Shown piece by piece: positions 206 to 12,734 of a stretch of DNA of 12,734 nucleotides. The stretch is from an uncultured Clostridia bacterium. GTDB taxonomy: Bacteria > Bacillota > Clostridia > Oscillospirales > Acutalibacteraceae. A program made the translations under genes and the position numbers. Where the stretch lies: positions 1 to 12,734 of the forward strand of contig CALAQQ010000071.1 in assembly GCA_937888485.1 (NCBI GenBank). Reading direction: 5' to 3'. Positions within the stretch are counted from its first letter, which is position 1, and each line of letters begins with the position of its first letter. Below the pieces are notes generated by a model that was not told where the DNA came from, searched no databases, and worked only from the letters and a program-made list of their open reading frames with translations.

Positions 206-424
206 ATGGCATTACAGTATAAGATTGATATTATGGATGCGTTGAAAAACAAAGGTTATTCTTCAACGAAAATCCGTGAAGAAAAACTTATCGGTCAATC
301 ATACCTTCAACAAATCAGACACGGTGAATTGGTATCGTGGAAAACTATTGATACTCTTTGCTCCCTCTTGGACTGTCAGGTTGGCGATTTGGTTGAGTAT
401 GTAAAAGACCCCGATGCTCAGTAA
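206..424 (+). CDS. Xre/Cro-C1-type helix-turn-helix transcriptional regulator (72 aa)
   Basis: The ORF has a good RBS. The sequence LKNKGYSSTKIREEKLIGQSYLQQIRHGELVSWKTIDTLCSLLDCQVGDLVEY is typical of small HTH_26/Xre regulators of phages and ICEs. It sits next to an operator-rich divergent promoter region. TAA stop. Confidence 0.85.
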   Translation: MALQYKIDIMDALKNKGYSSTKIREEKLIGQSYLQQIRHGELVSWKTIDTLCSLLDCQVGDLVEYVKDPDAQ

Positions 425-698
425 AGGGCGAACAGAGTTTCTTTAACAAATAACGGCGATTTTTGCACGGAATACACCCGATTTTTACCGAGCTTAAAGT
501 GTGAAGGAAAGCAGTTGTTTTTCTGAACAGGGGTCAGGGGGTATATTTCGGGAGAATCAAAAACACTTTCTCCCTTTGCGGAATTGCGTGGCTTGTTCTC
601 CGTCTGAATGTGATTTTTGTTTCGGATTACGGTTTATCCCGACCGCAAATGATAGAATGATTGTTTCTCCGTCAAGCGAACCAAAAGGAATATAAACG

Positions 699-742
699 AA
701 AAAAGACGGCAAACCGTGAGATTGTTTCTCTTGGTTTGCCGT
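699..742 (-). terminator. Rho-independent terminator closing the leftward module
   Basis: 10-bp stem ACGGCAAACC (706-715) / GGTTTGCCGT (733-742). On the minus strand it is followed by a six-U run (complement of 699-704). Lies 6 nt after the stop at 748. Confidence 0.7.
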
Positions 743-747
743 TTCGC

Positions 748-882
748 TTATTTCCAATCCTTGAATATTTCATCAAGTGCCATATCGAGTGCGGTTTTCA
801 TGCTCTTTTGCATAAAGGCAAGAATTTCCGCCTCGATTATGTTTTTCTTTTTCTTCTTCTTTTTGTCTTTTGGATTCGACAC
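748..882 (-). CDS. Small lysine-rich hypothetical protein (44 aa, GTG start): VSNPKDKKKKKKKNIIEAEILAFMQKSMKTALDMALDEIFKDWK
   Basis: Below the ORF-track length cut-off. GAGGTG RBS 8 nt upstream of the GTG. Starts 2 nt after the TAA of the preceding gene. TAA stop is followed directly by the terminator. Confidence 0.35.
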   Translation of the reverse strand: MSNPKDKKKKKKKNIIEAEILAFMQKSMKTALDMALDEIFKDWK

Positions 883-884
883 TG

Positions 885-1070
885 TTATTTCACCTCACTT
901 GTAAAGATGAATTGAACAGTCTCAGGTTCTTCCGAATCCTGTAATGAGTTGAAGAAATTATCTCTCTGTTCTGTATAGTTTTCTATTGCAGATTTGCCGT
1001 TCATTTGATAATAAAACAAATCGGGAACTTTGCCCTATGCTCTGTTAAACTCCAATAAATCTTTATTCAT
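885..1070 (-). CDS. Hypothetical 61-codon protein with one in-frame TAG (1035-1037): MNKDLLEFNRAxGKVPDLFYYQMNGKSAIENYTEQRDNFFNSLQDSEEPETVQFIFTSEVK
   Basis: The ATG at 1070 overlaps the TGA of the upstream gene (ATGA). The same frame stays open on both sides of the TAG. TAA stop at 885-887. Under the standard code only 11 codons would be made. Confidence 0.45.
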
Positions 1071-1504
1071 ATATTTTCTCCTTCCATAATATCATCAAGG
1101 GATATATTCAATGCACCCCTGTTGACTGTATAGCTTCTCCAATTTTCCTCTTTTGGAATCTGAGTGTTCAGCGGCGGCTAATACAGGCGGATGAAATATC
1201 CTTCTCTTTCTCCGATTTCTTCTTCGATTTCTGCTCTTGTTTTGCTCTTGGCGGTATAAAGAACGTTGAATCTGACGTTATATCTCCGCCTATGGGCTTC
1301 CGCAAGAACTTTGTATTTATTCTCTTTTGGATTTCCCATTGAAGCCCAATGTTCCGCCATTCGGTATAGAATATCTTTGCTTTTACCGATATAAACGATT
1401 TTATTGTTGACGGTTATTGAATAAACCCCCGAACACTAAAACTTTTTACTCCATTCTTGCTCTATGTATTTGTTGTAAATATTCTGTATGTGTAAATTAC
1501 TCAT
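1067..1504 (-). CDS. GIY-YIG domain nuclease (145 codons) with two in-frame TAG codons (1436-1438 and 1178-1180)
   Basis: RBS AAGGAGA sits 7 nt before the ATG at 1504. Translation is MSNLHIQNIYNKYIEQEWSKKFxCSGVYSITVNNKIVYIGKSKDILYRMAEHW...EIEEEIGEREGYFIRLYxPPLNTQIP...MEGENI. The GVY..(9)..YIGKS motif lies after the first TAG. The closing E...I....P.LN motif of the fold spans the second TAG. The real stop TGA (1067-1069) overlaps the next ATG. Confidence 0.7.
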
Positions 1505-1519
1505 ATTCATTCTCCTTTA

Positions 1520-2071
1520 TTAAAATTTAAAATTACCGTGTTCGTCTGTTAAACTCCCACTTGCTTTTGGATTCTTTATATTGTTATAATTTATATTATT
1601 CGAGCTTATAATTTTCTCTATATTATTATGCGTATTTTCAATAACCCCTGCTGAGGTGTATTCAGAATTTGAAGGGGTATATTCATTGTCAGGGGAAGGG
1701 GTATTTTCAATATCCCTCTCCGCACTTTTATAAATCGCATCATAATCAACGATGATTTCGCCTTGTTGACCGTTTTCGCTTGGCTTGTGGATTATCCAAC
1801 CTTTTTCAATCAGCTTTTTTCTTGCACTCTTATACGTTGTTTCTGACATTCCGCATCTGCTCATGACCGTTGCCTCAGGAACGGCAAAACTGCCGTTATC
1901 TGCATTTCCTGTCAGAAATAATATCAGTTTCAGCTAAGCTCCTTCTTTGCCTGTCAGACCGTTAAATATTATTGATTCAAGGTGATTCGTTCTCATTGCC
2001 ATTCCCCACTTTTTATCCCTGTTTTTTTCTCCATTAGCCCTCAGTATCGGTGCCTGAATAAAAACGCCCAT
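1520..2071 (-). CDS. Winged-helix replication-initiator / DnaD-like phage-plasmid replication protein (183 codons) with one in-frame TAG (1934-1936)
   Basis: Translation is MGVFIQAPILRANGEKNRDKKWGMAMRTNHLESIIFNGLTGKEGAxLKLILFLTGNADNGSFAVPEATVMSRCGMSETTYKSARKKLIEKGWIIHKP..., followed by a low-complexity N/S/E-rich tail. The pattern G-x-x-x-x-P-x-x-L ... L(T/S)xxxxxxLxLxL ... wHTH ... L-x-E-K-G-W-I matches phage/ICE replication organiser proteins. GGAGGA lies 9 nt before the ATG at 2071. Alternative starts at 2002 or 1996 are also upstream of the TAG. TAA stop. Confidence 0.65.
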
Positions 2072-2213
2072 AGCCGCAAATCCTCCACTGTTCGCAAATA
2101 AATCTGATATACTGACTTGTATTCATGTGATATTTTCTTGCCTACTCTTGGATTGCTTCCTTTTCTTTTTCAGTCAGGCGAAGGTCAATTTTTTTATTTT
2201 TTATAGTCTTCAT
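2034..2213 (-). CDS. Ribbon-helix-helix (MobC/CopG-like) protein, 59 codons, with one in-frame TAG (2142-2144)
   Basis: Translation is MKTIKNKKIDLRLTEKEKEAIQExARKYHMNTSQYIRFICEQWRICGYGRFYSGTDTEG. The beta strand (IDLRLT) and helix A precede the TAG, and helix B (NTSQYIRFI) follows it in the same frame. RBS GGAGAG is 5 nt before the ATG at 2213. An in-frame alternative start at 2264 (MSDISFKRKF...) exists. TAA stop at 2034-2036. Confidence 0.6.
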
Positions 2214-2283
2214 TTTATCTCTCCTTTTACTTGTAAATTTTCTTTTAAATGAAATATCAGACATTGTCCTACCTTCTAAATAT

Positions 2284-2312
2284 ATTATACAAAAATTTTT
2301 TGTTAAAATCAA
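2284..2312 (-). promoter_or_regulatory. Strong internal leftward promoter: -35 TTGATT (2307-2312), 17-nt spacer, -10 TATAAT (2284-2289), driving the TAG-containing module
   Basis: Near-consensus hexamers read on the minus strand. Lies directly downstream of terminator-like hairpins and upstream of the RHH gene. Confidence 0.6.
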
Positions 2313-2366
2313 AAAAGAGCGGTCGCCGCAAACAAAAGCACCGCTGAACTCGAGTGAATTCAGCGG
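2311..2366 (-). terminator. Tandem terminator-like hairpins after the paralogue pair
   Basis: Minus-strand RNA: CCGCUGAA-(10 nt)-UUCAGCGG (2341-2366) followed by UGCUUUUGUUUG. Then GCGG-CGA-CCGC (2319-2329) followed by UCUUUUUU. Confidence 0.5.
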
Positions 2367-2403
2367 CGGACTTGCTTTATTAAAATACATGGATTTGTTC
2401 CTT

Positions 2404-2925
2404 TCAGGCGGCAGGGTCAACTATTTCATTTTCTTCAGTTGCGTTATCGTTTTCTGCAACTGCGTTATCGATTTTTATAACTGCGTTATCTTTTTCCTCT
2501 TGGACTTCATCAGAGTTTTTGTCAACAGTCGGCATACCGTAATTTACGATTTCAGGATATTTCTTCAAAAACCAATTTTTAATTTCAGGATAACGGTATG
2601 CTTTTGAATGACATTCACTGATAAAAAGTTTATCATCAAGTTCTTTGAGAACAGCATCTCTTGTTTCAACAGGCTCAAATCTGTTGATATATTCTTTCAT
2701 ATAATCATAAGTTAATCCTTTGTAGTGTTCCTGATTGCTGTTAGCATTTATATTCTCACGGATAACCACATCAAAATTCGGGAAACTCTTTACATACTCG
2801 ACAAGCGTCTTATATTCCTTGTTTTTAGGGTTTTTTGCCTTTTCCGCAAACCATTTATAAAGAATAATTTGTTTGTTTGCGTAATCAATTCTTGCAGGGT
2901 TTATTCTTTTTCTTGACTTAGCCAT
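2404..2925 (-). CDS. Hypothetical protein, paralogue B (173 aa from MAKSRK...), with an acidic C-terminal tail of three heptad repeats
   Basis: RBS GGAAGGTGA is 5 nt before the ATG at 2925 (the ORF-track GTG at 2934 overlaps the RBS). Shares YKGL(T/G)YDYMK(E/R)YI and WFLxxYPEI motifs with the upstream gene. TGA stop. I recognise no family. Confidence 0.8.
   Translation of the reverse strand: MAKSRKRINPARIDYANKQIILYKWFAEKAKNPKNKEYKTLVEYVKSFPNFDVVIRENINANSNQEHYKGLTYDYMKEYINRFEPVETRDAVLKELDDKLFISECHSKAYRYPEIKNWFLKKYPEIVNYGMPTVDKNSDEVQEEKDNAVIKIDNAVAENDNATEENEIVDPAA
2440..2502. repeat. Three tandem 21-nt repeats, each starting TGCGTTATC, encoding DNAVIKI / DNAVAEN / DNATEEN on the minus strand
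   Basis: TGCGTTATC is found at 2440, 2461 and 2482, exactly 21 nt apart, inside the 3' end of paralogue B. Confidence 0.7.
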
Positions 2926-2947
2926 GATATTCACCTTCCTTTCTTAA

Positions 2948-3394
2948 TTAAGCCACAACTCTAAGCTTGGCTTTCTTTTCTTCACGAGCCTTTGCTCTCT
3001 TGGCTTTGATTTCCTTAATTTCCTCATCAGTTTTGTTGTTGAATTCTTCTATTTCAGGGTATGTTGCCAAGAACCACATTTTAATGTCACCATAAGAGAA
3101 TTCTTTGATAGTAACATCTCTTTCACCTTTTTCATTAAGACCCCTGAGCTTATAGAACATTTTCAGGTTTTCTTCCTTATTTTCATGAGCTTCGATGTAT
3201 CGCTTCATGTAATCATAACCAAGACCTTTGTATGTGTCTCTCTTGGTTGAGTTTGCTTTTACAACAATTTCATAACCTGTGAATATTGTGCGGAACTTTA
3301 CAAGTTCTTCAAACTTTTCACTTCCGAACTTTCCTGCTTCCTTTGATTCAGCCTTTGTCATTACAATAACTTTCTTTTCGTGATTTGCATACAT
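2948..3394 (-). CDS. Hypothetical protein, paralogue A (148 aa)
   Basis: RBS AAGGAGA is 6 nt before the ATG at 3394. Motifs TYKGLGYDYMKRYI and MWFLATYPEIEEF are colinear with paralogue B. Lys/Glu-rich C-terminus. TAA stop. Confidence 0.85.
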   Translation of the reverse strand: MYANHEKKVIVMTKAESKEAGKFGSEKFEELVKFRTIFTGYEIVVKANSTKRDTYKGLGYDYMKRYIEAHENKEENLKMFYKLRGLNEKGERDVTIKEFSYGDIKMWFLATYPEIEEFNNKTDEEIKEIKAKRAKAREEKKAKLRVVA

Positions 3395-3405
3395 AATTTT
3401 TCTCC

Positions 3406-3463
3406 TTAATAATAGGCGTTAGGTCGCCACCCTATTTTTATTATTCAGCGGTAAGTCGCTACC
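3406..3463 (-). promoter_or_regulatory. Structured 5' leader with a duplicated stem-loop module just upstream of the paralogue A RBS
   Basis: Plus-strand modules GGCG-TTAGGT-CGCC-ACC (3415-3431) and AGCG-GTAAGT-CGCT-ACC (3447-3463) are 32 nt apart. The closing pair differs by a compensatory change (G-C versus A-T). AATAGG (3411-3416) / CCTATT (3431-3436) can form a larger helix that abuts the RBS. Confidence 0.4.
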
Positions 3464-3558
3464 TTATTTCAGCACTTCAGGTTTCACCGTTTGCCTCTTG
3501 GTTTCGTTCACTCCTTTCAGGCGTTTTGTTTTGGTGTGTTCCCCTCTGCTGTGTCTAC

Positions 3559-3567
3559 AGTATATCA
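3559..3567 (-). promoter_or_regulatory. Candidate extended -10 promoter (TGATATACT on the minus strand) for the paralogue operon; weak -35
   Basis: Plus-strand AGTATATCA at 3559-3567. It would give a leader of about 160 nt. No good -35 hexamer was found. Confidence 0.3.
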
Positions 3568-3605
3568 CGCAACCACAATTTATCAGTCGTTATAAATGCA
3601 AAAAT

Positions 3606-3647
3606 AAGAAAGATACAAACTTTTTCAAAAAAAGTTGTATCTTTCTT
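3606..3647. terminator. Long AT-rich inverted repeat (19 bp with one bulge); bidirectional terminator/insulator or recombination/transfer-related hairpin
   Basis: AAGAAAGATACAAACTTTTT (3606-3625), c, AAAAAAAGTTGTATCTTTCTT (3627-3647). T-rich tracts flank it on both strands. Confidence 0.4.
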
Positions 3648-3655
3648 CTTAAATA

Positions 3656-3695
3656 GTTGTTATTAGGTTGTTATAAAGGCTTATAAATGTTGTTA
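3656..3695 (+). repeat. Helically phased direct repeats GTTGTTA at 3656, 3667 and 3689 (offsets 11 and 22 nt); candidate arm-type recombinase/accessory-protein sites or iterons
   Basis: Read directly. TTATAAA is also duplicated (3671-3677 and 3681-3687). Lies about 190 nt from the att core. Confidence 0.4.
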
Positions 3696-3714
3696 AAAAC
3701 TTATTACATACCTG

Positions 3715-3743
3715 TTGATTTTATAATAGAATTGTTTTATACT
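3715..3743 (+). promoter_or_regulatory. Outward-facing promoter-like element: -35 TTGATT (3715-3720), 17-nt spacer, -10 TATACT (3738-3743)
   Basis: Hexamers read directly. It points toward the tRNA fragment and terminator. The AT-rich context raises the chance of a false positive. Confidence 0.35.
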
Positions 3744-3854
3744 GTTATTGATTTAGAGATGAGGTCTGAGTTAATGTTAAACAAGACCTCTACATAATTA
3801 AGATTCCTAAAACTTGTTTAGTGTCAAGGGGTTGTTGGGGGTATCGTCTCCAAA

Positions 3855-3877
3855 ACAAGACCGAGAATCGGTCTTGT
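3855..3877. repeat. Perfect 10-bp inverted repeat ACAAGACCGA-GAA-TCGGTCTTGT abutting the att core
   Basis: Read directly. It ends 4 nt before the tRNA-derived sequence begins. Confidence 0.6.
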
Positions 3878-3880
3878 GTG

Positions 3881-3926
3881 CTTGGTAAGGATGAGGTCGG
3901 CGGTTCAATTCCGCCTAGCAGCTCCA
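3881..3926 (+). pseudogene. 3' portion (about 45 nt) of a tRNA-Thr(GGU) gene without its 5' half; interpreted as the displaced tRNA end at attR
   Basis: Colinear canonical parts are present: anticodon loop TTGGTAA (U33, GGT, A37) at 3882-3888, stem strand GGATG, variable loop AGGTC, T arm GGCGG-TTCAATT-CCGCC (3899-3915), acceptor strand TAGCAGC, discriminator T, and CCA (3924-3926). It closely parallels known bacterial tRNA-Thr(GGU) 3' halves. The partner strands CATCC and GCTGCTA and a D arm are absent upstream. Confidence 0.75.
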
Positions 3927-3929
3927 GAT

Positions 3930-3961
3930 AGCACTTCCTTTTGGAAGTGCTTTTCTTTTTT
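3930..3961 (+). terminator. Rho-independent terminator of the native tRNA gene
   Basis: AGCACTTCC-TTTT-GGAAGTGCT (3930-3951) followed by TTTCTTTTTT. Confidence 0.8.
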
Positions 3962-3962
3962 G

Positions 3963-3991
3963 TTGACAAAAATCGGGCAATGATTTATTCT
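3963..3991 (+). promoter_or_regulatory. Promoter of the GxGYxYP gene: -35 TTGACA (3963-3968), 17-nt spacer, -10 TATTCT (3986-3991)
   Basis: Hexamers read directly. RBS AAGGTGG lies at 4000-4006 and the ATG at 4013. Confidence 0.45.
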
Positions 3992-4012
3992 GTATTATAA
4001 GGTGGTGTTTTT

Positions 4013-5680
4013 ATGACAAGATTTACAGCATTCTTTATTTCGATAATACTGTTTTTCATTTCATGCTTTACGCCCGCAACTCCTGAAGCAAAACCTGAGC
4101 AGGAGCTTTTACAACTCGGCGATATCTGCATTGACTACACACTTTCAGACAAGCTTTATGTTCTTGATTCATCAACATTCCAAAGCAAAGATGAACGTCA
4201 CATGGCGGTAGGTCTTCAGGGCGTTGTTGCAAAAACCGCTCCGCTCATATATATAGTCACAAATTCAGCAGATAATTATTATCTTGAAGAGATTGAAAAA
4301 AGCGGTATTGAACTTATACGCAAAGATGAAAACGGTGAAAATTGGACCGTCAAATCTCTTCTCAACAAATTCAAATCATACATAACCGATTCGGGTTATG
4401 TTCTTTACCGTGAAAGCGAAAAGGCAGAAGGTCTTAACGCCGCAACAAATCTTGCGGCTCTTTACGGATGGTTGCCCGTACCTGAAAGCCTGAAACAGCT
4501 TGCAGTTGATGCAGGTCTTTCTCTTAAAGAGGATTTTTCAGATGACACATACAACTTGGTTTTTCAGTGGAGTTTTTTTGAAAAACATAAGGATGAGTTC
4601 AATTATAACGCACTTGCCAGCCTTAAATATGAGGTAACGGGCATTCGTGACCTTGCAATTCAGCAAGGATTTTACACATTCTATATTGACGATAACGAAG
4701 ACACGACTCTTCTTCGCGGTCATGTTATGAAACATGCAGGAGATAACGTTCCCGTTCTCGGATGGGTTAAATACGAGGTTGCATTCGTTGAGCAGGCATC
4801 AAAAAACGGCAATATTGCACTCCCCTCAGATCACAGCCACAATAACAGTTACCTTGCTTCGTTCAGATATGATATTCCCGAACAAAAGCACAGTGTTACA
4901 AAGGAATACACAGACACAACCAAACATTACTGCGCAATCGTTTTCAGCGACGGCGACAATCTTCAATGGATTCAGAACGGATACAGCGAATATTATCAAA
5001 AACTTGCCCTCGAAAATCAGTTCCCCATAACATGGTCATTTCCGCCACTGCTCCAAGAATTTTCACCTATTACTGTCAAAAGAATATATTCCGATGCAAC
5101 TGAAAACGATTATTTCATGGCAGGTGTTTCGGGCGCAGGATATATTCATCCGACCGAATACCCCTTTGACGCTCTCGGAGGATTCACCGATTTAACCGCT
5201 TCCTCAATGATGAAGAGCAATCTTGAATATGTTCAGATTCTCGACGGCACTCCGGAAAATAAAATTGACGATAAAATCCTTACCGACAGACTTGAATACT
5301 ATGCAAGATACGATAACATCAAGGGCGGTGTTTTAAGCCTTGATCCAACAAGATATGAGGGCGGCAAGGGCATGATTTATTTCGTTAACGACAAGCCCTT
5401 TATCAGCTACCGTCTTTCTCTCTGGCATCCAGACGGCGAGGGTGCAAGCGTTACAAACGAATGGCTTGACGAGCAGGCAGCAACAGTCAATTTCTACCCC
5501 GCAGATATTAAATCAATCAACGGATACAGCGTTATCAATGTTCATCCGTGGACCGTCAGCATTGAAAATCTCGCATATTTCGTAAGTCAGCTTGACGAGG
5601 ACGTTGTTCTCGTAACGCTTGATGAGCTTATGGAAATGATTGACAAGAATATTCCTCACGAATATGCAAAACCGGAATAA
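4013..5680 (+). CDS. GxGYxYP-domain protein (putative secreted/anchored glycoside hydrolase family), 555 aa
   Basis: N-terminal hydrophobic signal/anchor FFISIILFFISC (possible lipobox). GVSGAGYIHP matches the GxGYxYP signature. Good RBS and TAA stop. Confidence 0.8.
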   Translation: MTRFTAFFISIILFFISCFTPATPEAKPEQELLQLGDICIDYTLSDKLYVLDSSTFQSKDERHMAVGLQGVVAKTAPLIYIVTNSADNYYLEEIEKSGIELIRKDENGENWTVKSLLNKFKSYITDSGYVLYRESEKAEGLNAATNLAALYGWLPVPESLKQLAVDAGLSLKEDFSDDTYNLVFQWSFFEKHKDEFNYNALASLKYEVTGIRDLAIQQGFYTFYIDDNEDTTLLRGHVMKHAGDNVPVLGWVKYEVAFVEQASKNGNIALPSDHSHNNSYLASFRYDIPEQKHSVTKEYTDTTKHYCAIVFSDGDNLQWIQNGYSEYYQKLALENQFPITWSFPPLLQEFSPITVKRIYSDATENDYFMAGVSGAGYIHPTEYPFDALGGFTDLTASSMMKSNLEYVQILDGTPENKIDDKILTDRLEYYARYDNIKGGVLSLDPTRYEGGKGMIYFVNDKPFISYRLSLWHPDGEGASVTNEWLDEQAATVNFYPADIKSINGYSVINVHPWTVSIENLAYFVSQLDEDVVLVTLDELMEMIDKNIPHEYAKPE

Positions 5681-5687
5681 TAAAAAC

Positions 5688-5706
5688 GGGCGGCTCAATG
5701 CCGCCC
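5688..5706. terminator. Bidirectional terminator between convergent genes
   Basis: GGGCGGC-TCAAT-GCCGCCC. An A-run lies upstream and a T-rich tract downstream on the plus strand. On the minus strand it is followed by GTTTTTATTATT. Confidence 0.7.
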
Positions 5707-5712
5707 ATAATG

Positions 5713-6225
5713 TTATTTTGATTTGACAAACTTATAAATTATCGGCGGCAAAACACAGGCAACAATCAATACAGTGCAAAAAATAATATGCGCCTCAGAA
5801 AAGCCCGCAGGTCTTACATTTCCGTAGAACTCTCTGAAAAAGCCGTCAAAAACAGATAATGCAGGCATGGCCGGAATCAAAAACAGCAAAAGAATAAATG
5901 AAATATAATCCTCAAATCCAAGACCTAAATATTGATTTATCCAAAGAAAAAGAAACGCAACCGAAGGAACAACTAAAAATAAATATGAACCGAATAACAT
6001 TGCGTCTTTCGATTTTCTTTTGCAAACAACAGCAATGACAATCGAATACACAAGAAAGAGAAAAGGAAATATCAGAGTTATCAGTCTGCTTTCCGTGGGA
6101 AGATAAATATAGTCAACCAAAAAAGGCATTCTTCCTGCTGAAAAAACTCCCAAAGCCCAGACCGCAAGCGTTATTGCGGCGCCGAGAAAAAACTGTTTTG
6201 TGTCCGAATGTTTTTTATTTGCCAT
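5713..6225 (-). CDS. Hypothetical integral membrane protein (170 aa, several predicted TM helices)
   Basis: RBS AAAGGAG before the ATG at 6225. Hydrophobic segments run throughout (LGAAITLAVWALGVF, LITLIFPFLFLVYSIVIAVV, LFLVVPSVAFLFLWI, FILLLFLIPAMPAL, IIFCTVLIVACVLPPII). No family recognised. Confidence 0.7.
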   Translation of the reverse strand: MANKKHSDTKQFFLGAAITLAVWALGVFSAGRMPFLVDYIYLPTESRLITLIFPFLFLVYSIVIAVVCKRKSKDAMLFGSYLFLVVPSVAFLFLWINQYLGLGFEDYISFILLLFLIPAMPALSVFDGFFREFYGNVRPAGFSEAHIIFCTVLIVACVLPPIIYKFVKSK

Positions 6226-6331
6226 ATTACCACTCCTTTCCTTATCTTAACTATATCACGGCAAGAAATTTATTGTGTTACGGAAATATTAATATTGAAT
6301 TACAAATATTTACAAAACAAAAGGTGAAAAA

Positions 6332-7015
6332 ATGAAAACCGAAATAAATATCATAGCTCATATTCACACCGATTTTTCGTCAAAATTCGGTATACCCCGT
6401 CAGAGCGGACTTGTTGACGAGCTTGAAGCAACGATAGTTTTTGAACCCGAATACCGCAATCCCGATGCGCTGAGAGGCATTGAAGAATATTCGCATTTAT
6501 GGCTTCTGTGGCAGTTTTCGGAATGCATGGACAAGGAATGGACTCCGACGGTCAGACCGCCGAGACTCGGAGGCAACAAAAGAATGGGCGTTTTTGCAAC
6601 ACGCTCCCCTTTCAGACCTAATCCGATAGGTCTTTCAAGCGTAAGATTTCTCGGCATTGAAAAAACGGAAAAGTACGGTTATGTTCTTCGTGTTGCAGGT
6701 GCGGATTTGCTTGACGGCACTCCGATTTACGACATAAAGCCATATCTTCCCTACGTTGACTCACATCCCGAAGCAAGCAACGGCTTTGCACTTGATGAAA
6801 AGGATGGCAGACTTACCGTTGATTTTCCTGATGAGCTTTTAAATATGATTCCGAGCGAAAAGCAATCGGCATTGATTGCAGTCCTTGCGCAGGACCCCCG
6901 ACCCGGTTATCAGGATATTCCCGAAAGAATTTACGGAATAGAATTTGCGGGGTTTGACGTGAGATTCAAGGTTGAAAACTCTGTTTTATCAGTTATTGAA
7001 ATCAAAAACATATAA
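6332..7015 (+). CDS. trmO: tRNA (N6-threonylcarbamoyladenosine(37)-N6)-methyltransferase TrmO (TsaA/YaeB family)
   Basis: Family-typical motifs: FGIPRQSGL, YSHLWLLWQF, GVFATRSPFRPNPIGLS, GADLLDGTPIYDIKPYLPY. 227 aa, RBS AAGGTGA. Confidence 0.88.
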   Translation: MKTEINIIAHIHTDFSSKFGIPRQSGLVDELEATIVFEPEYRNPDALRGIEEYSHLWLLWQFSECMDKEWTPTVRPPRLGGNKRMGVFATRSPFRPNPIGLSSVRFLGIEKTEKYGYVLRVAGADLLDGTPIYDIKPYLPYVDSHPEASNGFALDEKDGRLTVDFPDELLNMIPSEKQSALIAVLAQDPRPGYQDIPERIYGIEFAGFDVRFKVENSVLSVIEIKNI

Positions 7016-7046
7016 AAAAACCGAGGTTTTAAAGCCTCGGTTTTTT
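7016..7046. terminator. Bidirectional terminator between trmO and the convergent operon
   Basis: A-run, CCGAGGTT-TTAA-AGCCTCGG (7021-7040), then T6. Confidence 0.75.
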
Positions 7047-7047
7047 G

Positions 7048-8673
7048 TTACGGTTGCAGAACAATCGGATGGTCTTCACTGATATGCTCGATTGTTATAA
7101 AATTATTTCTCTTTGCATATGCCCACTTCATTCCGAACGCCTTACAAGCGCCGTCAACGGGCATATAAAGCTGACCTTCGTTGCCTCTGAAAACTTCCGC
7201 GCCGAGGTCAACATCGCCTTTATTTGTCACGGCAATACTGCTTCCTTCGGTGAAAGTAACTTCTCTTCCGTAGATTTTAAGAGTGACCTTTCCCTTTTCA
7301 CGGATATCTTCACCGCCTGCAAATCTTATCATAGTTGCAAAAGCGATATACCACTCGCCGTCTTTGCATACAGCGGGAGTTGACATATTGCAAAGAGCAA
7401 GATCGACACCTTTATAATACACTCTCGTTCTGCCTTCGCCGAAAACCGGAGCAACTCTGTAAGGTCTGATTTCGTCTTTTGATTTATCAATTGAGAATTC
7501 ATCAATGATTCTGCCGTCGTTAAGCTCGGAAATAATTGATATTTTATCGCCGTCAACCTCAACAAGAGCAAAAGAGGAAACCTGTTCCTCATGAGGATAG
7601 AAAGATGCGTGCCATACTTTGTCGGTTGTTTTTGTTCCGGGAGGATTGAAATTTGCGTTGCCGAGTTCATAATGAATCGTGCCCTGCGAGGGTCTGTCAA
7701 AAATCTCTTCGTTCTTTATAGGAAATGAACGGGAGAAGTTATGCTCATGACCCGAGAAAAGAATATCGAGCATTTCCATTGATTCGCGCATCATGGGATA
7801 ATCATCATCGTTTGCAAGGTTGGGACCTGCATAATAAACGGGGAAATGCTGAGTGCCGAGTTTCCAGGTTTTATCGCTTTTTGCAATATCTTCTATCGCC
7901 CATTCATTCATAAGCTCGGGTTCATTAACACCGAAAACATTGAAATGAACGTTGCCGTAATCAAATGAATAAATTTCCGTCTGCCAACCCTCAGGACCGT
8001 TCTTTGGATATGAATATTCAAGCTGGGTATTGAAAAACTCAGCGGGCTCGGCATAGTATCTGTTAACCTCGTTGGGAAAATAATGCTCAAAGCCTCTGTT
8101 ATCATGGTTTCCGCAGGTCATCATATAGGGCAGATGCTCCATGATACCTTCCATACCCTCAAACATTGCGTTCCACTGAATTTCATGCTGACCGCAGTTT
8201 GTATTGTCGCCTGCGGTCAGAATAAACTTTACATCGGGGTATTTTGCGAGAATATCTTTGAGGAACTTGTTGAGAGTTGAATAATCGGGATTATAATGGT
8301 CGTTATCCTTTTGGTGGTCGGAAATCGCAATAAATCTGAACTTTGTGAGGTTTTCTTCCTCGGTATCAAACCAATATTCTTTGCTTCTGTTTTCCGCACT
8401 TCCGCAGGTATAATAATATCTTGTTCCGGGTTTCAGATCTGACGGAGTTGCCCAGAAAATATTGCTCGTGTTGACATCACTCTTGAACGGCTTCACGATT
8501 GCGTCCGCACGCTTTTTTTCTCCGTCTTTTTCGTAATACTCAACGTAACCTTCGGTAACATCAAGGCTTGAACGCCACGTTACCGTCATTGAGGTTTTGG
8601 CATCTCCCGAAATGCTGACCATAATATGGTCGGGCTTTTCGGTTGCAAATCTGTAATTGGGTGTTCTTTCCAT
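7048..8673 (-). CDS. Metallophosphoesterase with a purple-acid-phosphatase-like N-terminal domain and a C-terminal copper-amine-oxidase-N-like (stalk) domain, 541 aa
   Basis: Metallophosphoesterase motifs ISDHQ, TAGDNTN, CGNHDN and SGHEHNF. N-terminal TVTWRS...GTRYYYTCGS. No obvious signal peptide. RBS AAGGTGA. Confidence 0.85.
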   Translation of the reverse strand: MERTPNYRFATEKPDHIMVSISGDAKTSMTVTWRSSLDVTEGYVEYYEKDGEKKRADAIVKPFKSDVNTSNIFWATPSDLKPGTRYYYTCGSAENRSKEYWFDTEEENLTKFRFIAISDHQKDNDHYNPDYSTLNKFLKDILAKYPDVKFILTAGDNTNCGQHEIQWNAMFEGMEGIMEHLPYMMTCGNHDNRGFEHYFPNEVNRYYAEPAEFFNTQLEYSYPKNGPEGWQTEIYSFDYGNVHFNVFGVNEPELMNEWAIEDIAKSDKTWKLGTQHFPVYYAGPNLANDDDYPMMRESMEMLDILFSGHEHNFSRSFPIKNEEIFDRPSQGTIHYELGNANFNPPGTKTTDKVWHASFYPHEEQVSSFALVEVDGDKISIISELNDGRIIDEFSIDKSKDEIRPYRVAPVFGEGRTRVYYKGVDLALCNMSTPAVCKDGEWYIAFATMIRFAGGEDIREKGKVTLKIYGREVTFTEGSSIAVTNKGDVDLGAEVFRGNEGQLYMPVDGACKAFGMKWAYAKRNNFITIEHISEDHPIVLQP

Positions 8674-8675
8674 AA

Positions 8676-9983
8676 TTATTTCACCTTGATTTTAAATAAT
8701 CTTGCACCGTGGGAATTGACTTCTGCCGAAAATTCACCGTCGGTTACCGCATATTCTTCATGCTTCCACATATCCCATACGGAATAATTTATACCGCCGA
8801 TCGCAATATCGTTGATATCAAATTTTATGTTTCTGACTTTATCATCGGTATTGAAAAGAGCAACATATTTACAGTTTTCACCCTTTGAAGTCCAGATAAT
8901 TTCGCCCTTGCCGTCGGTTTCGTTTCTGCTGAACTGTCTTGCACCGCTTGAGTTTTTGAGCATATCGATAAGCTCTCTGTTCTGAAGAAGAGAAAGAGTG
9001 AACTCATCGTTTTCACGCATTTCAGCACCTATCATGAGCGGTGAACGGAAAATTCCCCAAAGAGTCATCATCGTTATCTGCTCATCATGAGTAAAACGGG
9101 TATATCTGTTTCTGTACTTTTCGAGCTCTTCGGTCTTCTGAATCCTGCCTATGGGAAGCATATCACAATCGGGCCATGCACCCGGCTGAACATATTCCTG
9201 CCATGCATAGCAACGCTCAAACATTGCATGAAGCTTGCTCCATTCATCCCAGAAATCGCCCGTCATTCTCCAGAGATTTGCGTTTGCGGCAAGATGTTCA
9301 TGCTCCCATACGGGTGCGGGACCGGGTGAAAGGCTGAGAACCATATCTCTGCCGCACTTATCAATTGCTTTGCGGAGCATTTCAATTTCTTCTCTGCCCG
9401 AATAAGGCTTATCAGGCCACATCTCTGTATTGGCAATATCATCGCATTTGATGTAGTCGACACCCCACTCGGCATAAAGTTCAAAAATGGAATCGTAATA
9501 TTCCTGCGCGCCCTTTTTATGAGTTTCAAGACCGTACATATCGGGATTCCACGGACAAATTGACGAAGGCTTTGCAATATCTTTTGCAGTGACGCCTTCA
9601 CACTTGATTTTAGTATTCATGTGTGCAGCCTGTCTGGGAATGCCTCTCATGATATGAATACCGAATTTAAGCCCGAGTGAGTGGATATAATCAGCAATAG
9701 GTTTGAAGCCTTTTCCGCCTGCTGAGGAAGGAAATCTTTCAACAGAGGGAATAAGGCGTGAATATTCATCCATGCAAAGGGGCGCAAAATAGTGGTAATA
9801 AAAGCTGTCGGCTGTCGGTTCTGACCACTGAATATCGCAGACAACATATTCCCAACCGTAATCCTTAAGATGCTCAGCCATATAGTCGGCATTTGCAAGA
9901 AGCTGTTCCTCGTTAACGGCAGCACCGTAGCAGTCCCAACTGTTCCAACCCATGGGAGGAGTGGGGGCAAGTCTTTTGTGCAT
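8676..9983 (-). CDS. Glycoside hydrolase family 27 enzyme (alpha-galactosidase-like), 435 aa
   Basis: PPMGWNSWDCYG N-terminal signature and the VDYIKCDD nucleophile-region motif. Starts 2 nt after the upstream gene ends. Confidence 0.85.
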   Translation of the reverse strand: MHKRLAPTPPMGWNSWDCYGAAVNEEQLLANADYMAEHLKDYGWEYVVCDIQWSEPTADSFYYHYFAPLCMDEYSRLIPSVERFPSSAGGKGFKPIADYIHSLGLKFGIHIMRGIPRQAAHMNTKIKCEGVTAKDIAKPSSICPWNPDMYGLETHKKGAQEYYDSIFELYAEWGVDYIKCDDIANTEMWPDKPYSGREEIEMLRKAIDKCGRDMVLSLSPGPAPVWEHEHLAANANLWRMTGDFWDEWSKLHAMFERCYAWQEYVQPGAWPDCDMLPIGRIQKTEELEKYRNRYTRFTHDEQITMMTLWGIFRSPLMIGAEMRENDEFTLSLLQNRELIDMLKNSSGARQFSRNETDGKGEIIWTSKGENCKYVALFNTDDKVRNIKFDINDIAIGGINYSVWDMWKHEEYAVTDGEFSAEVNSHGARLFKIKVK

Positions 9984-9985
9984 AA

Positions 9986-10810
9986 TTATCTTTCCTTTCG
10001 ATAAACTCTTATCTCAAACTCTGCCTGAGTTTCGAGATAGTCAAGATTATTTATTTTTTGTTGGTCTTCAATTCCTGTTTTATAATAATAAGGTGTCATT
10101 TTGAAAAGGCTCTGTATCATTTCATTGGAATTCATCAGAAACTGTGTTTTGGTCTGACAAGTTTTAACACAGCTGAAGCCGTCAATTTCCGTATCGGGAA
10201 CATCGTTGAGATAAGGCTTTTCATATATTGCGGCTTTCAGTCCGAAAAGATGCTTTTCAAGCGGAATTATCTTTATAAGATAACCTCCTGTTTTCAGAAC
10301 ACGGTGAAATTCTCCGTCTGCATCGGGTGAAAAGATATTCAGCACCGCATCGAAGCGTTCGTCGGCAAACGGCAAATCAAAAAGACTTGCAACGGCGAGA
10401 GGAATTCCGCTTTTCCTTTTTGAGGCATATTCAAGCGCATCCTTCGAAATATCAACGCCCGAAACAAAAATCTCTTTTCCTTTTTCGGAATAATACTGCT
10501 TCAGACCCGATGAATAATAACATTCACCGCAGCCCGCATCGAGAAAATCTCTGCCGTCGGGAAGATATTTTTCGCAGATTTCACACAGTTCATCACGCAG
10601 AAAACCGTAATAACCCGAATCGAGGAAATCGCGTCTTGCCCTGACCATGAGGCGGTCGTCGCCGTGGCGTTTTGCGGAGGATTTCTGCGACTGCAACAAA
10701 TTCACATAGCCGAATTTTGACTTATCGAAACAATGCCCCTTTTCACAGCGGTAAAGCCTTTCTTCTTCTGAAAGCTCTTTTTTGCATACGGGACAAATAA
10801 AATTTATCAT
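9986..10810 (-). CDS. rlmA: 23S rRNA (guanine-N1)-methyltransferase, RlmA family
   Basis: Zn-finger CPVC...C.KGHCFD, then FGYVNLL, GDD..MV.AR..FL, and SAM motif LDAGCGECYY. The ATG overlaps the upstream TGA (ATGA at 10807-10810). Confidence 0.8.
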   Translation of the reverse strand: MINFICPVCKKELSEEERLYRCEKGHCFDKSKFGYVNLLQSQKSSAKRHGDDRLMVRARRDFLDSGYYGFLRDELCEICEKYLPDGRDFLDAGCGECYYSSGLKQYYSEKGKEIFVSGVDISKDALEYASKRKSGIPLAVASLFDLPFADERFDAVLNIFSPDADGEFHRVLKTGGYLIKIIPLEKHLFGLKAAIYEKPYLNDVPDTEIDGFSCVKTCQTKTQFLMNSNEMIQSLFKMTPYYYKTGIEDQQKINNLDYLETQAEFEIRVYRKER

Positions 10811-11673
10811 TTCTTAACCCTGTATTTCTCAATTTTTTTCATCATTGATCTGCCGACGTCATGCATGAATCTTTCGCATGCGGGAAGCAAATCATCTGGG
10901 AAGCCGTGGAGAAAACGGTCCGCTTCATACGTAAAATTACCCTTATAGTCGATTTCTCCGAGTGCGTGAAGAATATCGTCCCAATCCATTTCCATCATAT
11001 AGGGAAGAGTGTGGCTGTCATTAAAATTATCGTTATCATGGATATGAAGGCAACCGAGTCTGCCGTCCATCTGACGAATCATTGCGCCCGCATTATCGCC
11101 GACAAGACCGCAATGACCGAGGTCAAGGCAAGCGGTGAAATTATCGGGATTCAGAGCGTCAACGTATCGGTTGAAATCCTCTGCAACGGAGCAAACGTTG
11201 GGAACGATTTTGTTAAGCTTATTATCCCATCCCCACATATTTTCGAGCGCAATTTTAACGCCGTATTCCTTGGCATAAGGTTCGAGAGAATGATAAAGCT
11301 CCATGTTACGCTCAAACTGGTCTGAGCTGAACTGCACGGGATGAACAACGCAGATTTTTGCATCGAGAATGCCTGAAATTTCAAGCGCTCTCTTGAGCTT
11401 TTCAAAAATCTGTACGGTATATTCACTGTCAAATTCCTTTGCGCTGGGGAAAGGTGCATGAGCCTGCTCAAAGGTTACACCGTAATAATCGGCAATCTTC
11501 TTCAATGCATTAATGTGGTTTTTATAAGCTGACGTGTTGAGCACGTCGTTATCATCGTCCATTTTGAACATGGAATAGTCTATTCCGTCAAAACCGCTTT
11601 CGCAGATAATACGAACTGCCTCGGCATCTCCGAGACGTTCGGAGATTCTTTCCGTCTGATTAACAAGCTTCAT
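10807..11673 (-). CDS. Sugar phosphate isomerase/epimerase (xylose-isomerase-like TIM barrel family), 288 aa
   Basis: Family-like blocks KIALENMWG, CLDLGH and LHIHDND. RBS GGAGG is 8 nt before the ATG. First gene of the four-gene leftward operon. Confidence 0.85.
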   Translation of the reverse strand: MKLVNQTERISERLGDAEAVRIICESGFDGIDYSMFKMDDDNDVLNTSAYKNHINALKKIADYYGVTFEQAHAPFPSAKEFDSEYTVQIFEKLKRALEISGILDAKICVVHPVQFSSDQFERNMELYHSLEPYAKEYGVKIALENMWGWDNKLNKIVPNVCSVAEDFNRYVDALNPDNFTACLDLGHCGLVGDNAGAMIRQMDGRLGCLHIHDNDNFNDSHTLPYMMEMDWDDILHALGEIDYKGNFTYEADRFLHGFPDDLLPACERFMHDVGRSMMKKIEKYRVKK

Positions 11674-11705
11674 ATATTTGCCTCCTATTATAAGGTCATG
11701 AGAAC

Positions 11706-11734
11706 ATTATAACAGTTAACTCTCTTTTCTACAA
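11706..11734 (-). promoter_or_regulatory. Operon promoter: -35 TTGTAG (11729-11734), 17-nt spacer, extended -10 TGTTATAAT (11706-11714)
   Basis: Read on the minus strand. A GTTAAC-centred site (11715-11720) lies in the spacer. Confidence 0.55.
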
Positions 11735-11737
11735 GTT

Positions 11738-11749
11738 ATTGTTAACAAT
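11738..11749. promoter_or_regulatory. Perfect 12-bp palindrome ATTGTTAACAAT; candidate TetR operator
   Basis: Lies between the divergent TetR gene and the operon promoter, 3 bp upstream of its -35. A related half-palindrome AACAGTTAAC is at 11711-11720. Confidence 0.45.
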
Positions 11750-11820
11750 TTTTTAATTGACTTTTAAATAAAAATATATTAAATTATTATCATTGGGAAA
11801 TTATAAAGGGGAGAAAGAAT

Positions 11821-12396
11821 ATGGCTAAAGCAGAATACAGAAGTTCAATACGTTCAAAAAACCTTATCAAAAAGGCTTTGGCTAAGCTGATTCACGAAAA
11901 GGATATAGCAAAAATCACTGTTTCGGATATTATCAGAGAAGCCGATATAAGCCGCGGCACATTCTATGCTCATTTTTCAGATGTCAATTCTGTTGTCACA
12001 CAGATTGAAAGCGAAGAAATGAACAGTCTTATGGATTTTGTTGATAAATACGGTTTTGAAAATATCAGCAAAACACCAAACAACTTCATTGCCGTCATAT
12101 GCGAATATATGATGCGTGATATGGAGTATTACCGTATGCTTGCAATGTCAAACATACTCAACAACTTTATCTGGCGTCTTGTAAATGTTTACTATGAAAA
12201 ACTGCTTGAGATAGTTTTGTCACTCAGACAGGATATTGACAGAAACGAAGCTGAAACTTACCTTATTTATATCACCTCAGGTGCAAAAACAGCTATTCTC
12301 AGCTGGCTCAACGGTGAAATAAAGTGTACCCCGGAAGAAATCGGCGAAAGACTCGGAAAGCTTATCAAACTGTCACAGACTTATTTTGAAAGATAA
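11821..12396 (+). CDS. TetR/AcrR family transcriptional regulator, 191 aa
   Basis: N-terminal HTH ITVSDIIREADISRGTFYAHFSD. RBS GGGGAG. Divergent from the carbohydrate/rlmA operon. Confidence 0.9.
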   Translation: MAKAEYRSSIRSKNLIKKALAKLIHEKDIAKITVSDIIREADISRGTFYAHFSDVNSVVTQIESEEMNSLMDFVDKYGFENISKTPNNFIAVICEYMMRDMEYYRMLAMSNILNNFIWRLVNVYYEKLLEIVLSLRQDIDRNEAETYLIYITSGAKTAILSWLNGEIKCTPEEIGERLGKLIKLSQTYFER

Positions 12397-12401
12397 TAAA
12401 A

Positions 12402-12440
12402 GGCACGATGCAATTTTAAATGCACCGTGCCGATTTTTTT
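12402..12440. terminator. Bidirectional terminator between convergent genes
   Basis: GGCACGATGCA-(loop)-TGCACCGTGCC (one mismatch) followed by T7. An A-rich tract lies upstream. Confidence 0.7.
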
Positions 12441-12734
12441 ATAATCCGATAAGTCCGAGAAAACCGTATGAGAAAGCACTCATAATGAGGTTTGCAATAA
12501 GAACACCGAGGGCAATAATCGGAAAAGAAGATTTTATTCTTATGTCGAGCAATGCCGCAATCAGTGCGCCTGTCCAACCGCCCGTACCTGGAAGAGGAAT
12601 GGCAACAAAAGCAAGAAGCCCCCAGTTTCTCCATCTCTTAACCTTTTCGCTCTTTCTCATGGAACGGACTTCAAGTTTTTCGATGAGTCCGCCGATTTTT
12701 TTGAATCTTTTGAGAAACTGAAAAATCCTTCTTA
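12439..12734 (-). CDS. Small multidrug export-like membrane protein (COG2426-type), C-terminal part; the gene continues past the window end
   Basis: The frame stays open upstream of the ORF-track Met (...RRIFQFLKRFKKIGGLIEKLEVRSMRKSEK...). The motif LLAFVAIPLPGTGGWTGALIAALL is typical of this family. TAA stop at 12439-12441. Confidence 0.65.
   Translation of the reverse strand, partial: RRIFQFLKRFKKIGGLIEKLEVRSMRKSEKVKRWRNWGLLAFVAIPLPGTGGWTGALIAALLDIRIKSSFPIIALGVLIANLIMSAFSYGFLGLIGL

Follow-up and report, generated by a model that had tools for sequence, protein, structure and literature searches.

In-frame TAG codons probably read as glutamine in the replication and nuclease operon of a small tRNA-Thr-integrated element of Clostridia

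The stretch of DNA analyzed here, referred to as the window, comprises positions 1 to 12,734 of contig CALAQQ010000071.1 (assembly GCA_937888485.1) from an uncultured Clostridia bacterium. Its minus strand contains a gene for a GIY-YIG nuclease that appears to end at a TAG codon (1178-1180), and a first-pass annotation of the window had proposed that this single stop is read through, completing the catalytic domain. We found that this TAG is one of five in-frame TAGs in four adjacent minus-strand genes (~2264 to 885), and comparison with related loci suggested that all five are almost certainly read as Gln. Read-through of one stop was too narrow a proposal, as the nuclease gene contains two TAGs and each of its three neighbors contains one. 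The four genes are part of an integrated element of ~8.8 kb, and the best overall explanation, in which we have high confidence, is an element with two coding regimes that carries a TAG = Gln operon within a host using the standard code.

The nuclease gene, which resembles that of T4 endonuclease II (EndoII), occupies 1067-1504 on the minus strand, from ATG 1504-1502 to TGA 1069-1067, and would encode 145 aa with both TAGs read as Gln. A Shine-Dalgarno sequence (AAGGAG, 1517-1512) is located 7 nt upstream of ATG 1504. From this ATG the frame reads MSNLHIQNIYNKYIEQEWSKKF, meets TAG 1438-1436 at codon 23, and continues as CSGVYSITVNNKIVYIGKS. This TAG, which was missed in the first-pass annotation, lies 3 codons ahead of the GIY motif and separates the true start from the remainder of the gene, including both the GIY and the YIG motif. 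In the standard code, translation from the real start halts after 22 codons; the 60-aa product of the open reading frame (ORF) track is not a truncated enzyme to be extended. The TAG at codon 109 (1178-1180) lies between the codons of the catalytic Glu (1204-1202) and of a conserved Asn (1168-1166). Read directly from the sequence, it comes after ...EREGYFIRLY and is followed by 36 open codons, PPLNTQIPKEENWRSYTVNRGALNISLDDIMEGENI, and TGA 1069-1067. This stop and the start codon of the next gene, p61 (ATG 1070-1068), overlap as ATGA (1070-1067), an arrangement kept in all close relatives. The positions originally given for the TAG, the TGA, and the ATGA junction were all right, and the frame does terminate at that junction. 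The junction is real, but the translational-coupling argument built on it is weak because p61 has its own Shine-Dalgarno sequence and a TAG at codon 12.

An open stretch of 36 codons past a stop is in itself unremarkable, with a ~1-in-8 chance at this base composition by rough estimate rather than computation. It is meaningful because relatives conserve the downstream codons and not because of its open length. A search of 5.8 billion proteins returned 103 homologs of the read-through product, many of which are full-length proteins of 145 aa without a stop, and the 36 residues after the codon-109 TAG are conserved among them, down to ~40% identity. Both TAG columns are occupied by Gln in the 23 closest database homologs (P0001-P0023, 77-97% identical), and the codon-23 column is Gln in all homologs that are 80-97% identical. 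Codon 109 is CAG in loci L001 and L005 (L-numbers are labels of related loci, L001 being a complete element). An alignment of 37 sequences showed no variation at P110, L112, N113, P117, and W122, all of which are encoded beyond the second TAG. In a comparison of seven distinct TAG-bearing copies, the ratio of nonsynonymous to synonymous polymorphism (pN/pS) was 0.00 for codons 1-22 (30 synonymous differences), 0.17 between the TAGs, and 0.15 for codons 110-145, in sequence pairs that are not phylogenetically independent. The claim that the gene continues beyond 1178-1180 was thus upheld by the conservation of the downstream codons, and the TAG at this position is most probably a Gln codon and not a terminator. 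In public databases the nuclease is shown as fragments of 53 to 111 aa.

The GIY-YIG domain itself extends across the codon-109 TAG. Pfam PF01541 matched residues 25-110 (profile positions 2-74 of 78; E 3.7e-6; 27.6 bits versus a cut-off of 22.6), and the protein also matched the endonuclease family PHROG 1111. In a sequence profile search of the PDB, T4 EndoII (2wsh) was the best sequence match (E 1.4e-7), with an alignment that spans "FIKLFNPPWNIQ" versus the query "fiRkykPpLntq" and so runs through the PPxN motif past the TAG. In both the Pfam and the EndoII profile alignments the domain is incomplete ahead of position 1180, and the Pro-Pro-Leu-Asn segment that the first-pass annotation had placed beyond the TAG was recovered there. 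The invariant N113 (1168-1166), 4 codons past TAG 1178-1180, aligns with the PPWN of EndoII and corresponds to the domain-closing Asn of the family (N88 of UvrC, an "N88A" mutant being among the structure matches), and this Asn would be in the product only if the TAG is decoded. The Glu and Asn columns had been expected at 1190-1165; the Asn falls within this interval, while the catalytic Glu, E101 (1204-1202), lies just outside it and ahead of the codon-109 TAG. E101 aligns with EndoII position 118; the 2wsh protein, an E118A mutant, has Ala there. Both E101 and the conserved Arg, R48, are invariant in the 37-sequence alignment, as are G26, Y28, Y38, and G40 of the hairpin motifs GVYSI ... 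IVYIGKS at residues 26-42.

AlphaFold modeled the full-length 145-aa protein as one compact GIY-YIG domain with a mean predicted local distance difference test score (pLDDT) of 94.2 and a predicted template modeling score (pTM) of 0.88. The pLDDT was 95-98 for residues 110-140 and 85-88 for the N-terminal helix ahead of the first TAG. Foldseek matched the model with probability 1.00 to the UvrC N-terminal domain, T4 EndoII, and I-TevI (1ycz, 2wsh, and 1ln0). By its motifs, Arg and Glu residues, Asn, and predicted alpha/beta fold, the protein is a member of the GIY-YIG superfamily with predicted nuclease activity. It shares the fold and the constellation of GIY/YIG hairpin, Arg, Glu, and Asn with T4 endonuclease II (DenA), UvrC, and I-TevI; however, it is only ~20-25% identical to them, carries an additional helix at its N terminus (residues 3-15) and an extended C terminus (residues 115-141), and has no attached DNA-binding domain of the I-TevI type. 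A role in DNA processing tied to replication or packaging, or in attack on competing DNA, is plausible by analogy, because the phage homologs adjoin packaging genes and the best structural relative degrades DNA in T4 infection.

The three neighbors of the nuclease gene carry their TAGs inside conserved domains, and no in-frame TAA or TGA is present in the operon. The first gene of the operon (2034-2264, minus strand) encodes a NikA-like, repressor-like ribbon-helix-helix protein of 76 aa with TAG 2144-2142 at codon 41. Its Pfam NikA-like match (residues 22-54) spans the TAG, and it also matched PHROG 876 (repressor). Relatives of this protein have TAGs at other Gln positions, including a tandem TAG-TAG in L010 and L011, IQ(TAG)(TAG)AKKY, versus QQ in L013, IQQTAKKF. 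Such tandem TAGs argue for efficient decoding and not for leaky read-through. The second gene (1520-2002, minus strand; alternative start ATG 2071) encodes a replication-initiator-like winged-helix protein of 160 aa and contains TAG 1936-1934 at codon 23, so the standard code truncates the initiator after 22 codons. Its Pfam HTH_36 match (residues 22-70) spans the TAG, its PHROG matches were 270, 428, and 186 (replication initiation or DnaD-like), and the TAG column is Gln in L013 and in phage locus L117. A swap seen in the initiator is KEGA(TAG)LKL versus KEGAQLKL. The nuclease gene is followed by p61 (885-1070, minus strand), which encodes 61 aa with no assigned function and contains TAG 1037-1035 at codon 12; its Shine-Dalgarno sequence (AGGAG, 1078-1082, minus strand) is located 7 nt before its ATG, within the last codons of the nuclease gene. 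Fourteen distinct copies of p61 contain 12 in-frame TAGs (at least one in 11 copies) and no TAA or TGA, and TAG exchanges with Gln at another column, E(TAG)RNNF versus EQRDNF. A further swap among relatives is ICEQWRI versus ICE(TAG)WRI. Reading TAG as a sense codon raised the ORF coverage of 885-2330 from 0.52 in the standard code to 0.99.

One genome per GTDB species was scanned, which gave 80 loci, nearly all from Oscillospirales or other Clostridia and including cultured isolates. Over the 122-codon GIY-YIG core, 86 loci contained 126 in-frame TAGs, one TAA, and one TGA, with at least one TAG in 75 of the 86; in the four recoded genes together, there were 175 TAGs versus 2 other stops. The GIY-YIG TAGs are spread over 27 alignment columns. 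Site-specific programmed read-through of a single leaky stop, in which some ribosomes would pass TAG 1178-1180 by virtue of local context and produce an extended isoform, agrees with the conserved open frame past this TAG and with its end at the ATGA junction. However, the codon-23 TAG would abolish any product, the neighboring genes carry TAGs as well, and a short isoform could not be functional, since it would lack the GIY and YIG motifs together with the Asn. Moreover, the TAGs move between relatives, exchange with CAG and CAA (as at codon 109), and occur in tandem, which excludes a site-specific read-through signal; we regard this explanation as very improbable. Judged from these alignments, the process is reassignment of TAG to Gln, since the TAG positions shift among relatives and are interchangeable with CAG and CAA.

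The identity of the inserted residue was assessed from the nearest relative without a stop at the TAG column, which had Gln in 81 of 123 cases and in 18 of the 19 at ≥90% identity. The assignment rests on this nearest-relative analysis because column-wise statistics were indecisive: they cannot separate Gln from Glu or Lys, all of which are single-base neighbors of TAG. TAG is also the codon of pyrrolysine, and some Clostridia carry pyl genes. That TAG specifies pyrrolysine or another non-Gln residue here is nevertheless scarcely credible, as its columns are Gln in close relatives, no locus yielded a pylT-like tRNA at credible thresholds, and the TAGs occupy variable, surface-type positions of ordinary DNA-binding and nuclease proteins. 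The base C follows in-frame TAGs in 40% of cases, versus 12-24% after CAA or CAG; many of these TAGs share one column, A(TAG)HY, and no conclusion was drawn from the bias since the counts are not independent.

The TAGs could also have arisen as CAG-to-TAG nonsense mutations in a decaying, dead element. Each such change requires only a single C-to-T transition, and one near-identical copy (L139, described below) has apparently lost its integrase. However, CAA is as common as CAG in the recoded genes (254 versus 250), and the CAA-to-TAA changes that decay should equally produce are absent from them. In addition, no frameshifts were seen in the collinear alignments (indels were not explicitly counted), and pN/pS was as low after the codon-109 TAG as before it. 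Copies of the element share 91-96% identity even where the host flanks of their contigs differ or match at only 78-80%, which implies that the element moves between hosts and has spread horizontally in recent times, and the TAGs are confined to one operon. The asymmetry of stop types together with purifying selection excludes pseudogene decay, which we rate as vanishingly improbable. These comparisons instead showed, at the level of the aligned genes, that TAG is maintained by purifying selection as a sense codon equivalent to Gln and is confined to the operon, where it is very probably decoded. Related GIY-YIG genes with one to four in-frame TAGs are present in cultured isolates, namely, Oscillibacter valericigenes An860 (L035 and L061), Pseudoflavonifractor phocaeensis An901 (L030), and Hominicoprocola fusiformis CLA-AA-H188 (L023); in L061, resolvase and WYL genes are located near the GIY-YIG gene. 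Large TAG-bearing ORFs in L061 (53% GC) were rejected as antisense artifacts.

The recoded operon is embedded in an element of ~8.8 kb from attL to attR that is integrated at the 3' end of the tRNA-Thr(GGT) gene of a gut bacterium of the Oscillospirales (Clostridia). Its right end in the window is attR, a 46-bp copy of the 3' part of tRNA-Thr(GGT) (3881-3926, plus strand), which is followed by the intrinsic terminator of the original tRNA gene (3930-3962, plus strand), where the host chromosome begins. The layout of the whole element was read from contigs encoding a Cro-like protein identical to that of window 206-424. Carriers include the metagenome-assembled genomes JAZUQA01, JAGAOT01, and JAFQRY01. 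From the intact tRNA-Thr, the order is tyrosine integrase, WYL regulator, variable cargo, serine resolvase, DUF6809, p91, and HTH_26, followed on the opposite strand by p44, p61, the GIY-YIG nuclease, the initiator, the ribbon-helix-helix protein, p176/p187, and p148, and then attR. In the 93 loci compared, the distinct copies of the integrase (47 copies), WYL, resolvase, DUF6809, p91, HTH_26, p44, p176/p187, and p148 contained no TAG in >50,000 codons, with ~1,800 Gln codons of the CAR type (CAA or CAG). The fraction TAG/(TAG+CAR) was 0.19 for p61, 0.27 for GIY-YIG, 0.20 for the initiator, and 0.31 for the ribbon-helix-helix gene. The avoidance of TAG in the integrase, WYL, and resolvase set implies that these genes must be expressed while TAG is a stop, whereas the p61, GIY-YIG, initiator, and ribbon-helix-helix genes would be expressible only when TAG is decoded.

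The recoded genes look like a separate transcription unit, as judged from pattern matches. A consensus scan of the minus strand at 2279-2368 placed a terminator-like hairpin (2368-2339) behind the upstream gene and promoter-like sites (2312-2284 and 2306-2279) after the hairpin, and the small TAG-free ORF p44 (748-882, minus strand) closes the operon, with a hairpin and T-run after it (~745-700). The Cro/C1-type helix-turn-helix regulator (206-424, plus strand; Pfam HTH_26) is divergent from the recoded operon and had no TAG in 32 copies. Upstream of the recoded operon lies the TAG-free operon of p176 (2404-2934) and p148 (2948-3394), both on the minus strand and without an assigned function. 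These two proteins are paralogous (30% identity) and kept across the element family, with no TAG in 39 and 49 distinct copies, respectively. They had no match in Pfam, PHROG, the PDB, or BFVD, and the predicted structure of p148 (pLDDT 81, pTM 0.47) gave no Foldseek match with E <0.1 in the PDB or BFVD.

The cargo slot between the WYL and resolvase genes differed among L001-L006, where it held genes for a 352-aa lipoprotein-like protein, an EcoRI-type methylase with GmrSD/HNH (L002), a 535-aa zinc-ribbon/CapR-like protein, a 276-aa protein, or a 169-aa protein. The slot resembles a defense hotspot. Locus L139 (ENA ERZ1767568 NODE_976) is 99.9% identical to window 398-5673 and runs from attR through the resolvase and WYL genes directly into a host MatE gene. 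It lacks an integrase, as well as tRNA-Thr at the far end, and is either an immobilized copy or a rearrangement. Left of position 398, the window departs from L139 and has a different HTH_26 allele. ARAGORN reported a 96-nt "tRNA" at attR (window 3831-3926; L002 13656-13751; L009 7630-7725) that consists of a hairpin and the tRNA-Thr fragment and is probably spurious, because its "anticodon" differs between variants (GAA versus TTT). In this structure, the acceptor 3' strand of the tRNA-Thr fragment is paired with GTTGTTG from the element, and the anticodon arm is represented by a conserved hairpin (AAGACC-loop-GGTCTT). Lying beside the att core, this hairpin could act as a terminator or as an arm site for a recombinase.

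The host part of the window (4013-12734) encodes a GxGYxYP glycoside hydrolase, TrmO, a purple acid phosphatase, an alpha-galactosidase, RlmA, a TIM barrel of the sugar-phosphate isomerase/epimerase type, and a TetR regulator. Its ORF coverage was 0.97 with TAG taken either as stop or as sense, and its genes were full length relative to Pfam. The stops are strongly TAA-biased; those in the window are TAA or TGA (TAG 0/9), and TAG accounts for only 1 of 47 stops among the closest hosts and ends about 6-8% of the long ORFs in the 86 genome loci. The flanking genes examined showed that the host uses the standard code.

Besides the limits of the column-wise and pN/pS comparisons given above, it is the negative search for a suppressor tRNA that weighs against sense decoding of TAG. 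ARAGORN, at default and at lowered thresholds, found no tRNA with a CUA anticodon in 141 loci (the window, 86 genome loci, 52 viral loci, and three further loci), and an Rfam scan of eight loci, comprising element L001 and seven phage loci including L089 and L097, found no tRNA(CUA) either. A suppressor tRNA(CUA) of its own, which is a frequent but not universal trait of TAG-recoded elements, was thus not found in the element. L089 and L097 together form a complete recoded phage genome, in which neither ARAGORN nor Rfam detected any tRNA, which makes it less likely that the suppressor tRNA is simply provided by a helper phage. A host-encoded suppressor may still be compatible with these results, as flanks rather than whole host genomes were examined. 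The tRNA-Ile(UAU) present in some phages whose relationship was traced by the large terminase subunit (L113 3208-3283, L114 8359-8434, and L125 7747-7823), 1.6-2.3 kb upstream of the gene for that subunit, was rejected as a suppressor, as it is a normal canonical tRNA.

The absence of tRNA(CUA) from both the element and the complete related phage would be accounted for if the host itself decoded TAG, constitutively or conditionally, through a chromosomal suppressor tRNA or a weak or absent release factor 1 (RF1), with the element and the phages exploiting this capacity. The rarity of TAG as a host stop points in the same direction, as does the L089 and L097 phage, in which even the genes adjoining the integrase carry TAG. 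However, the lack of in-frame TAG in host genes and in ten gene families of the element is hard to explain if TAG is always readable as Gln, and some host ORFs do terminate in TAG. We know of no bacterium with genome-wide reassignment of TAG to Gln, and we consider decoding by the host unlikely, though it is the least improbable of the alternatives.

The partition of the element into TAG-free and TAG-bearing genes may reflect a conditional "amber lock" on the operon. The integrase, WYL regulator, cargo, resolvase, Cro-like regulator, p148, and p176 would be made in the normal translation state of the host. As long as UAG acts as a stop, the nuclease and the initiator would each be cut after 22 codons, and the operon would be silent, locked at translation; once UAG is decoded as Gln, the replication and nuclease operon would be unlocked. 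Decoding would be conditional and supplied in trans by a co-resident or infecting TAG-recoded phage or by another code-switching factor. The decoder could be a suppressor tRNA on another co-resident phage or a conditional decoder encoded by the host. Inactivation of RF1, with near-cognate reading of UAG by tRNA-Gln, is a possible route that does not require a dedicated tRNA. We put the chances of such conditional regulation at about even.

Phages in which TAG is recoded to Gln have been reported from gut microbiomes, with suppressor tRNAs detected in only 40% of them, and the recoding was proposed to keep lytic genes locked at the level of translation (Borges et al., bioRxiv 10.1101/2021.08.26.457843; later Nat Microbiol 2022). 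The "Topaz" prophages described in that work are 22±3 kb in size, reside at tRNA-Thr in standard-code Oscillospiraceae, and have TAG-free integrases (bioRxiv 10.1101/2021.08.26.457843). Contigs of ~22-27 kb from IMG/VR (L089, L092, and L093, with their relatives L094-L135) fit this description. The tape-measure, tail, small and large terminase, and portal genes of these phages carry 1-14 TAGs each, and their integrase is TAG-free. L089 and L097 (IMG/VR 3300045988_102862 and _091535) make up a siphovirus-like genome of ~22.5 kb with TAG in nearly every gene except the integrase. The phage integrase is 33-36% identical to that of the element, and a GIY-YIG homolog, 35-37% identical, is encoded two genes upstream of the small terminase subunit. 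The large terminase of the recoded phages is ≤38% identical to those of Clostridium and Bacillus siphoviruses. DNA and protein searches of GenBank phages found no relative of the element or its nuclease, and no noncoding DNA common to the element and the recoded phage loci, such as a cos/pac site or operator, was detected at the nucleotide level.

The element resembles the Topaz phages in its use of TAG as a Gln codon, its mobility in a standard-code Firmicutes host, its tRNA-Thr site, and its strictly TAG-free integrase. In contrast, the element is only a third of their size and has no terminase, portal, capsid, tail, or lysis genes; its recoding is limited to one replication and nuclease operon instead of affecting nearly all genes or the structural and lysis genes; and it has a WYL regulator, a serine resolvase, and a variable cargo slot. 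Because it lacks virion genes, is much smaller, and shares only the integrase, the GIY-YIG gene, and the coding habit, the element is not a member of the Topaz clade, to which L089 and its relatives were matched by description only. In the crAss-like and Lak phages (genetic code 15), in-frame TAG likewise means Gln, the code differs from that of the host, and recoded and standard genes are partitioned within one genome. These are large lytic phages of Bacteroidota, many with a suppressor tRNA, whereas the element is integrative, does not form virions, resides in Clostridia, and had no suppressor tRNA that we could find.

In its general organization the element is closer to satellites, such as phage-inducible chromosomal islands (PICIs), P4-like satellites, and PICI-like elements (PLEs), and to integrative mobilizable elements. 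It is small and tRNA-integrated, encodes an integrase, its own regulators, and an initiator, lacks structural genes, has a cargo slot, and spreads across species. With its integrase, regulators, and replication module and without a virion gene set, it fits a broad PICI-like definition. Unlike these elements, it contained no recognized packaging-hijack gene, relaxase, or primase; no homolog of a small terminase or capsid-remodeling protein was found in it, and p148, p176, and p61 gave no match. In our literature searches, no recoded satellite or recoded integrative mobilizable element came to light. The recoding of TAG to Gln is thus a published phenomenon in itself, while its carrier here, a small integrative element, is of an unpublished type.

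Tentatively, the element may be a hitchhiker or satellite of TAG-recoded temperate phages that uses its amber codons as a sensor of the code switch, although we rate this as possible rather than probable. Either a recoded phage, on induction or infection, or a non-tRNA mechanism such as inactivation of RF1 would throw the switch, and the initiator and the EndoII-like nuclease would then be made. The element would replicate just as the helper enters its lytic program, and might at that time also process DNA to be packaged or turn against the genome of the helper or host. If true, this would be the first case in which the state of the genetic code serves as a signal between elements, and the cultured carriers would give a handle on decoding in the ~60% of recoded phages without a detected suppressor tRNA.

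Recoding of a stop codon, as suggested by these results, is not restricted to virion-forming phages, and one operon can be kept in a different code from the rest of the same element. As this operon encodes replication and nuclease functions and not structural or lysis proteins, it extends the idea of a translational lock. Standard-code gene calling shatters the operon, truncating the initiator and the ribbon-helix-helix protein as well as the nuclease, and related elements occur in at least 80 GTDB species representatives of Oscillospirales. That both the element and a complete related phage lack a suppressor tRNA bears on how UAG is reassigned, and the copies in cultured strains make this question testable.

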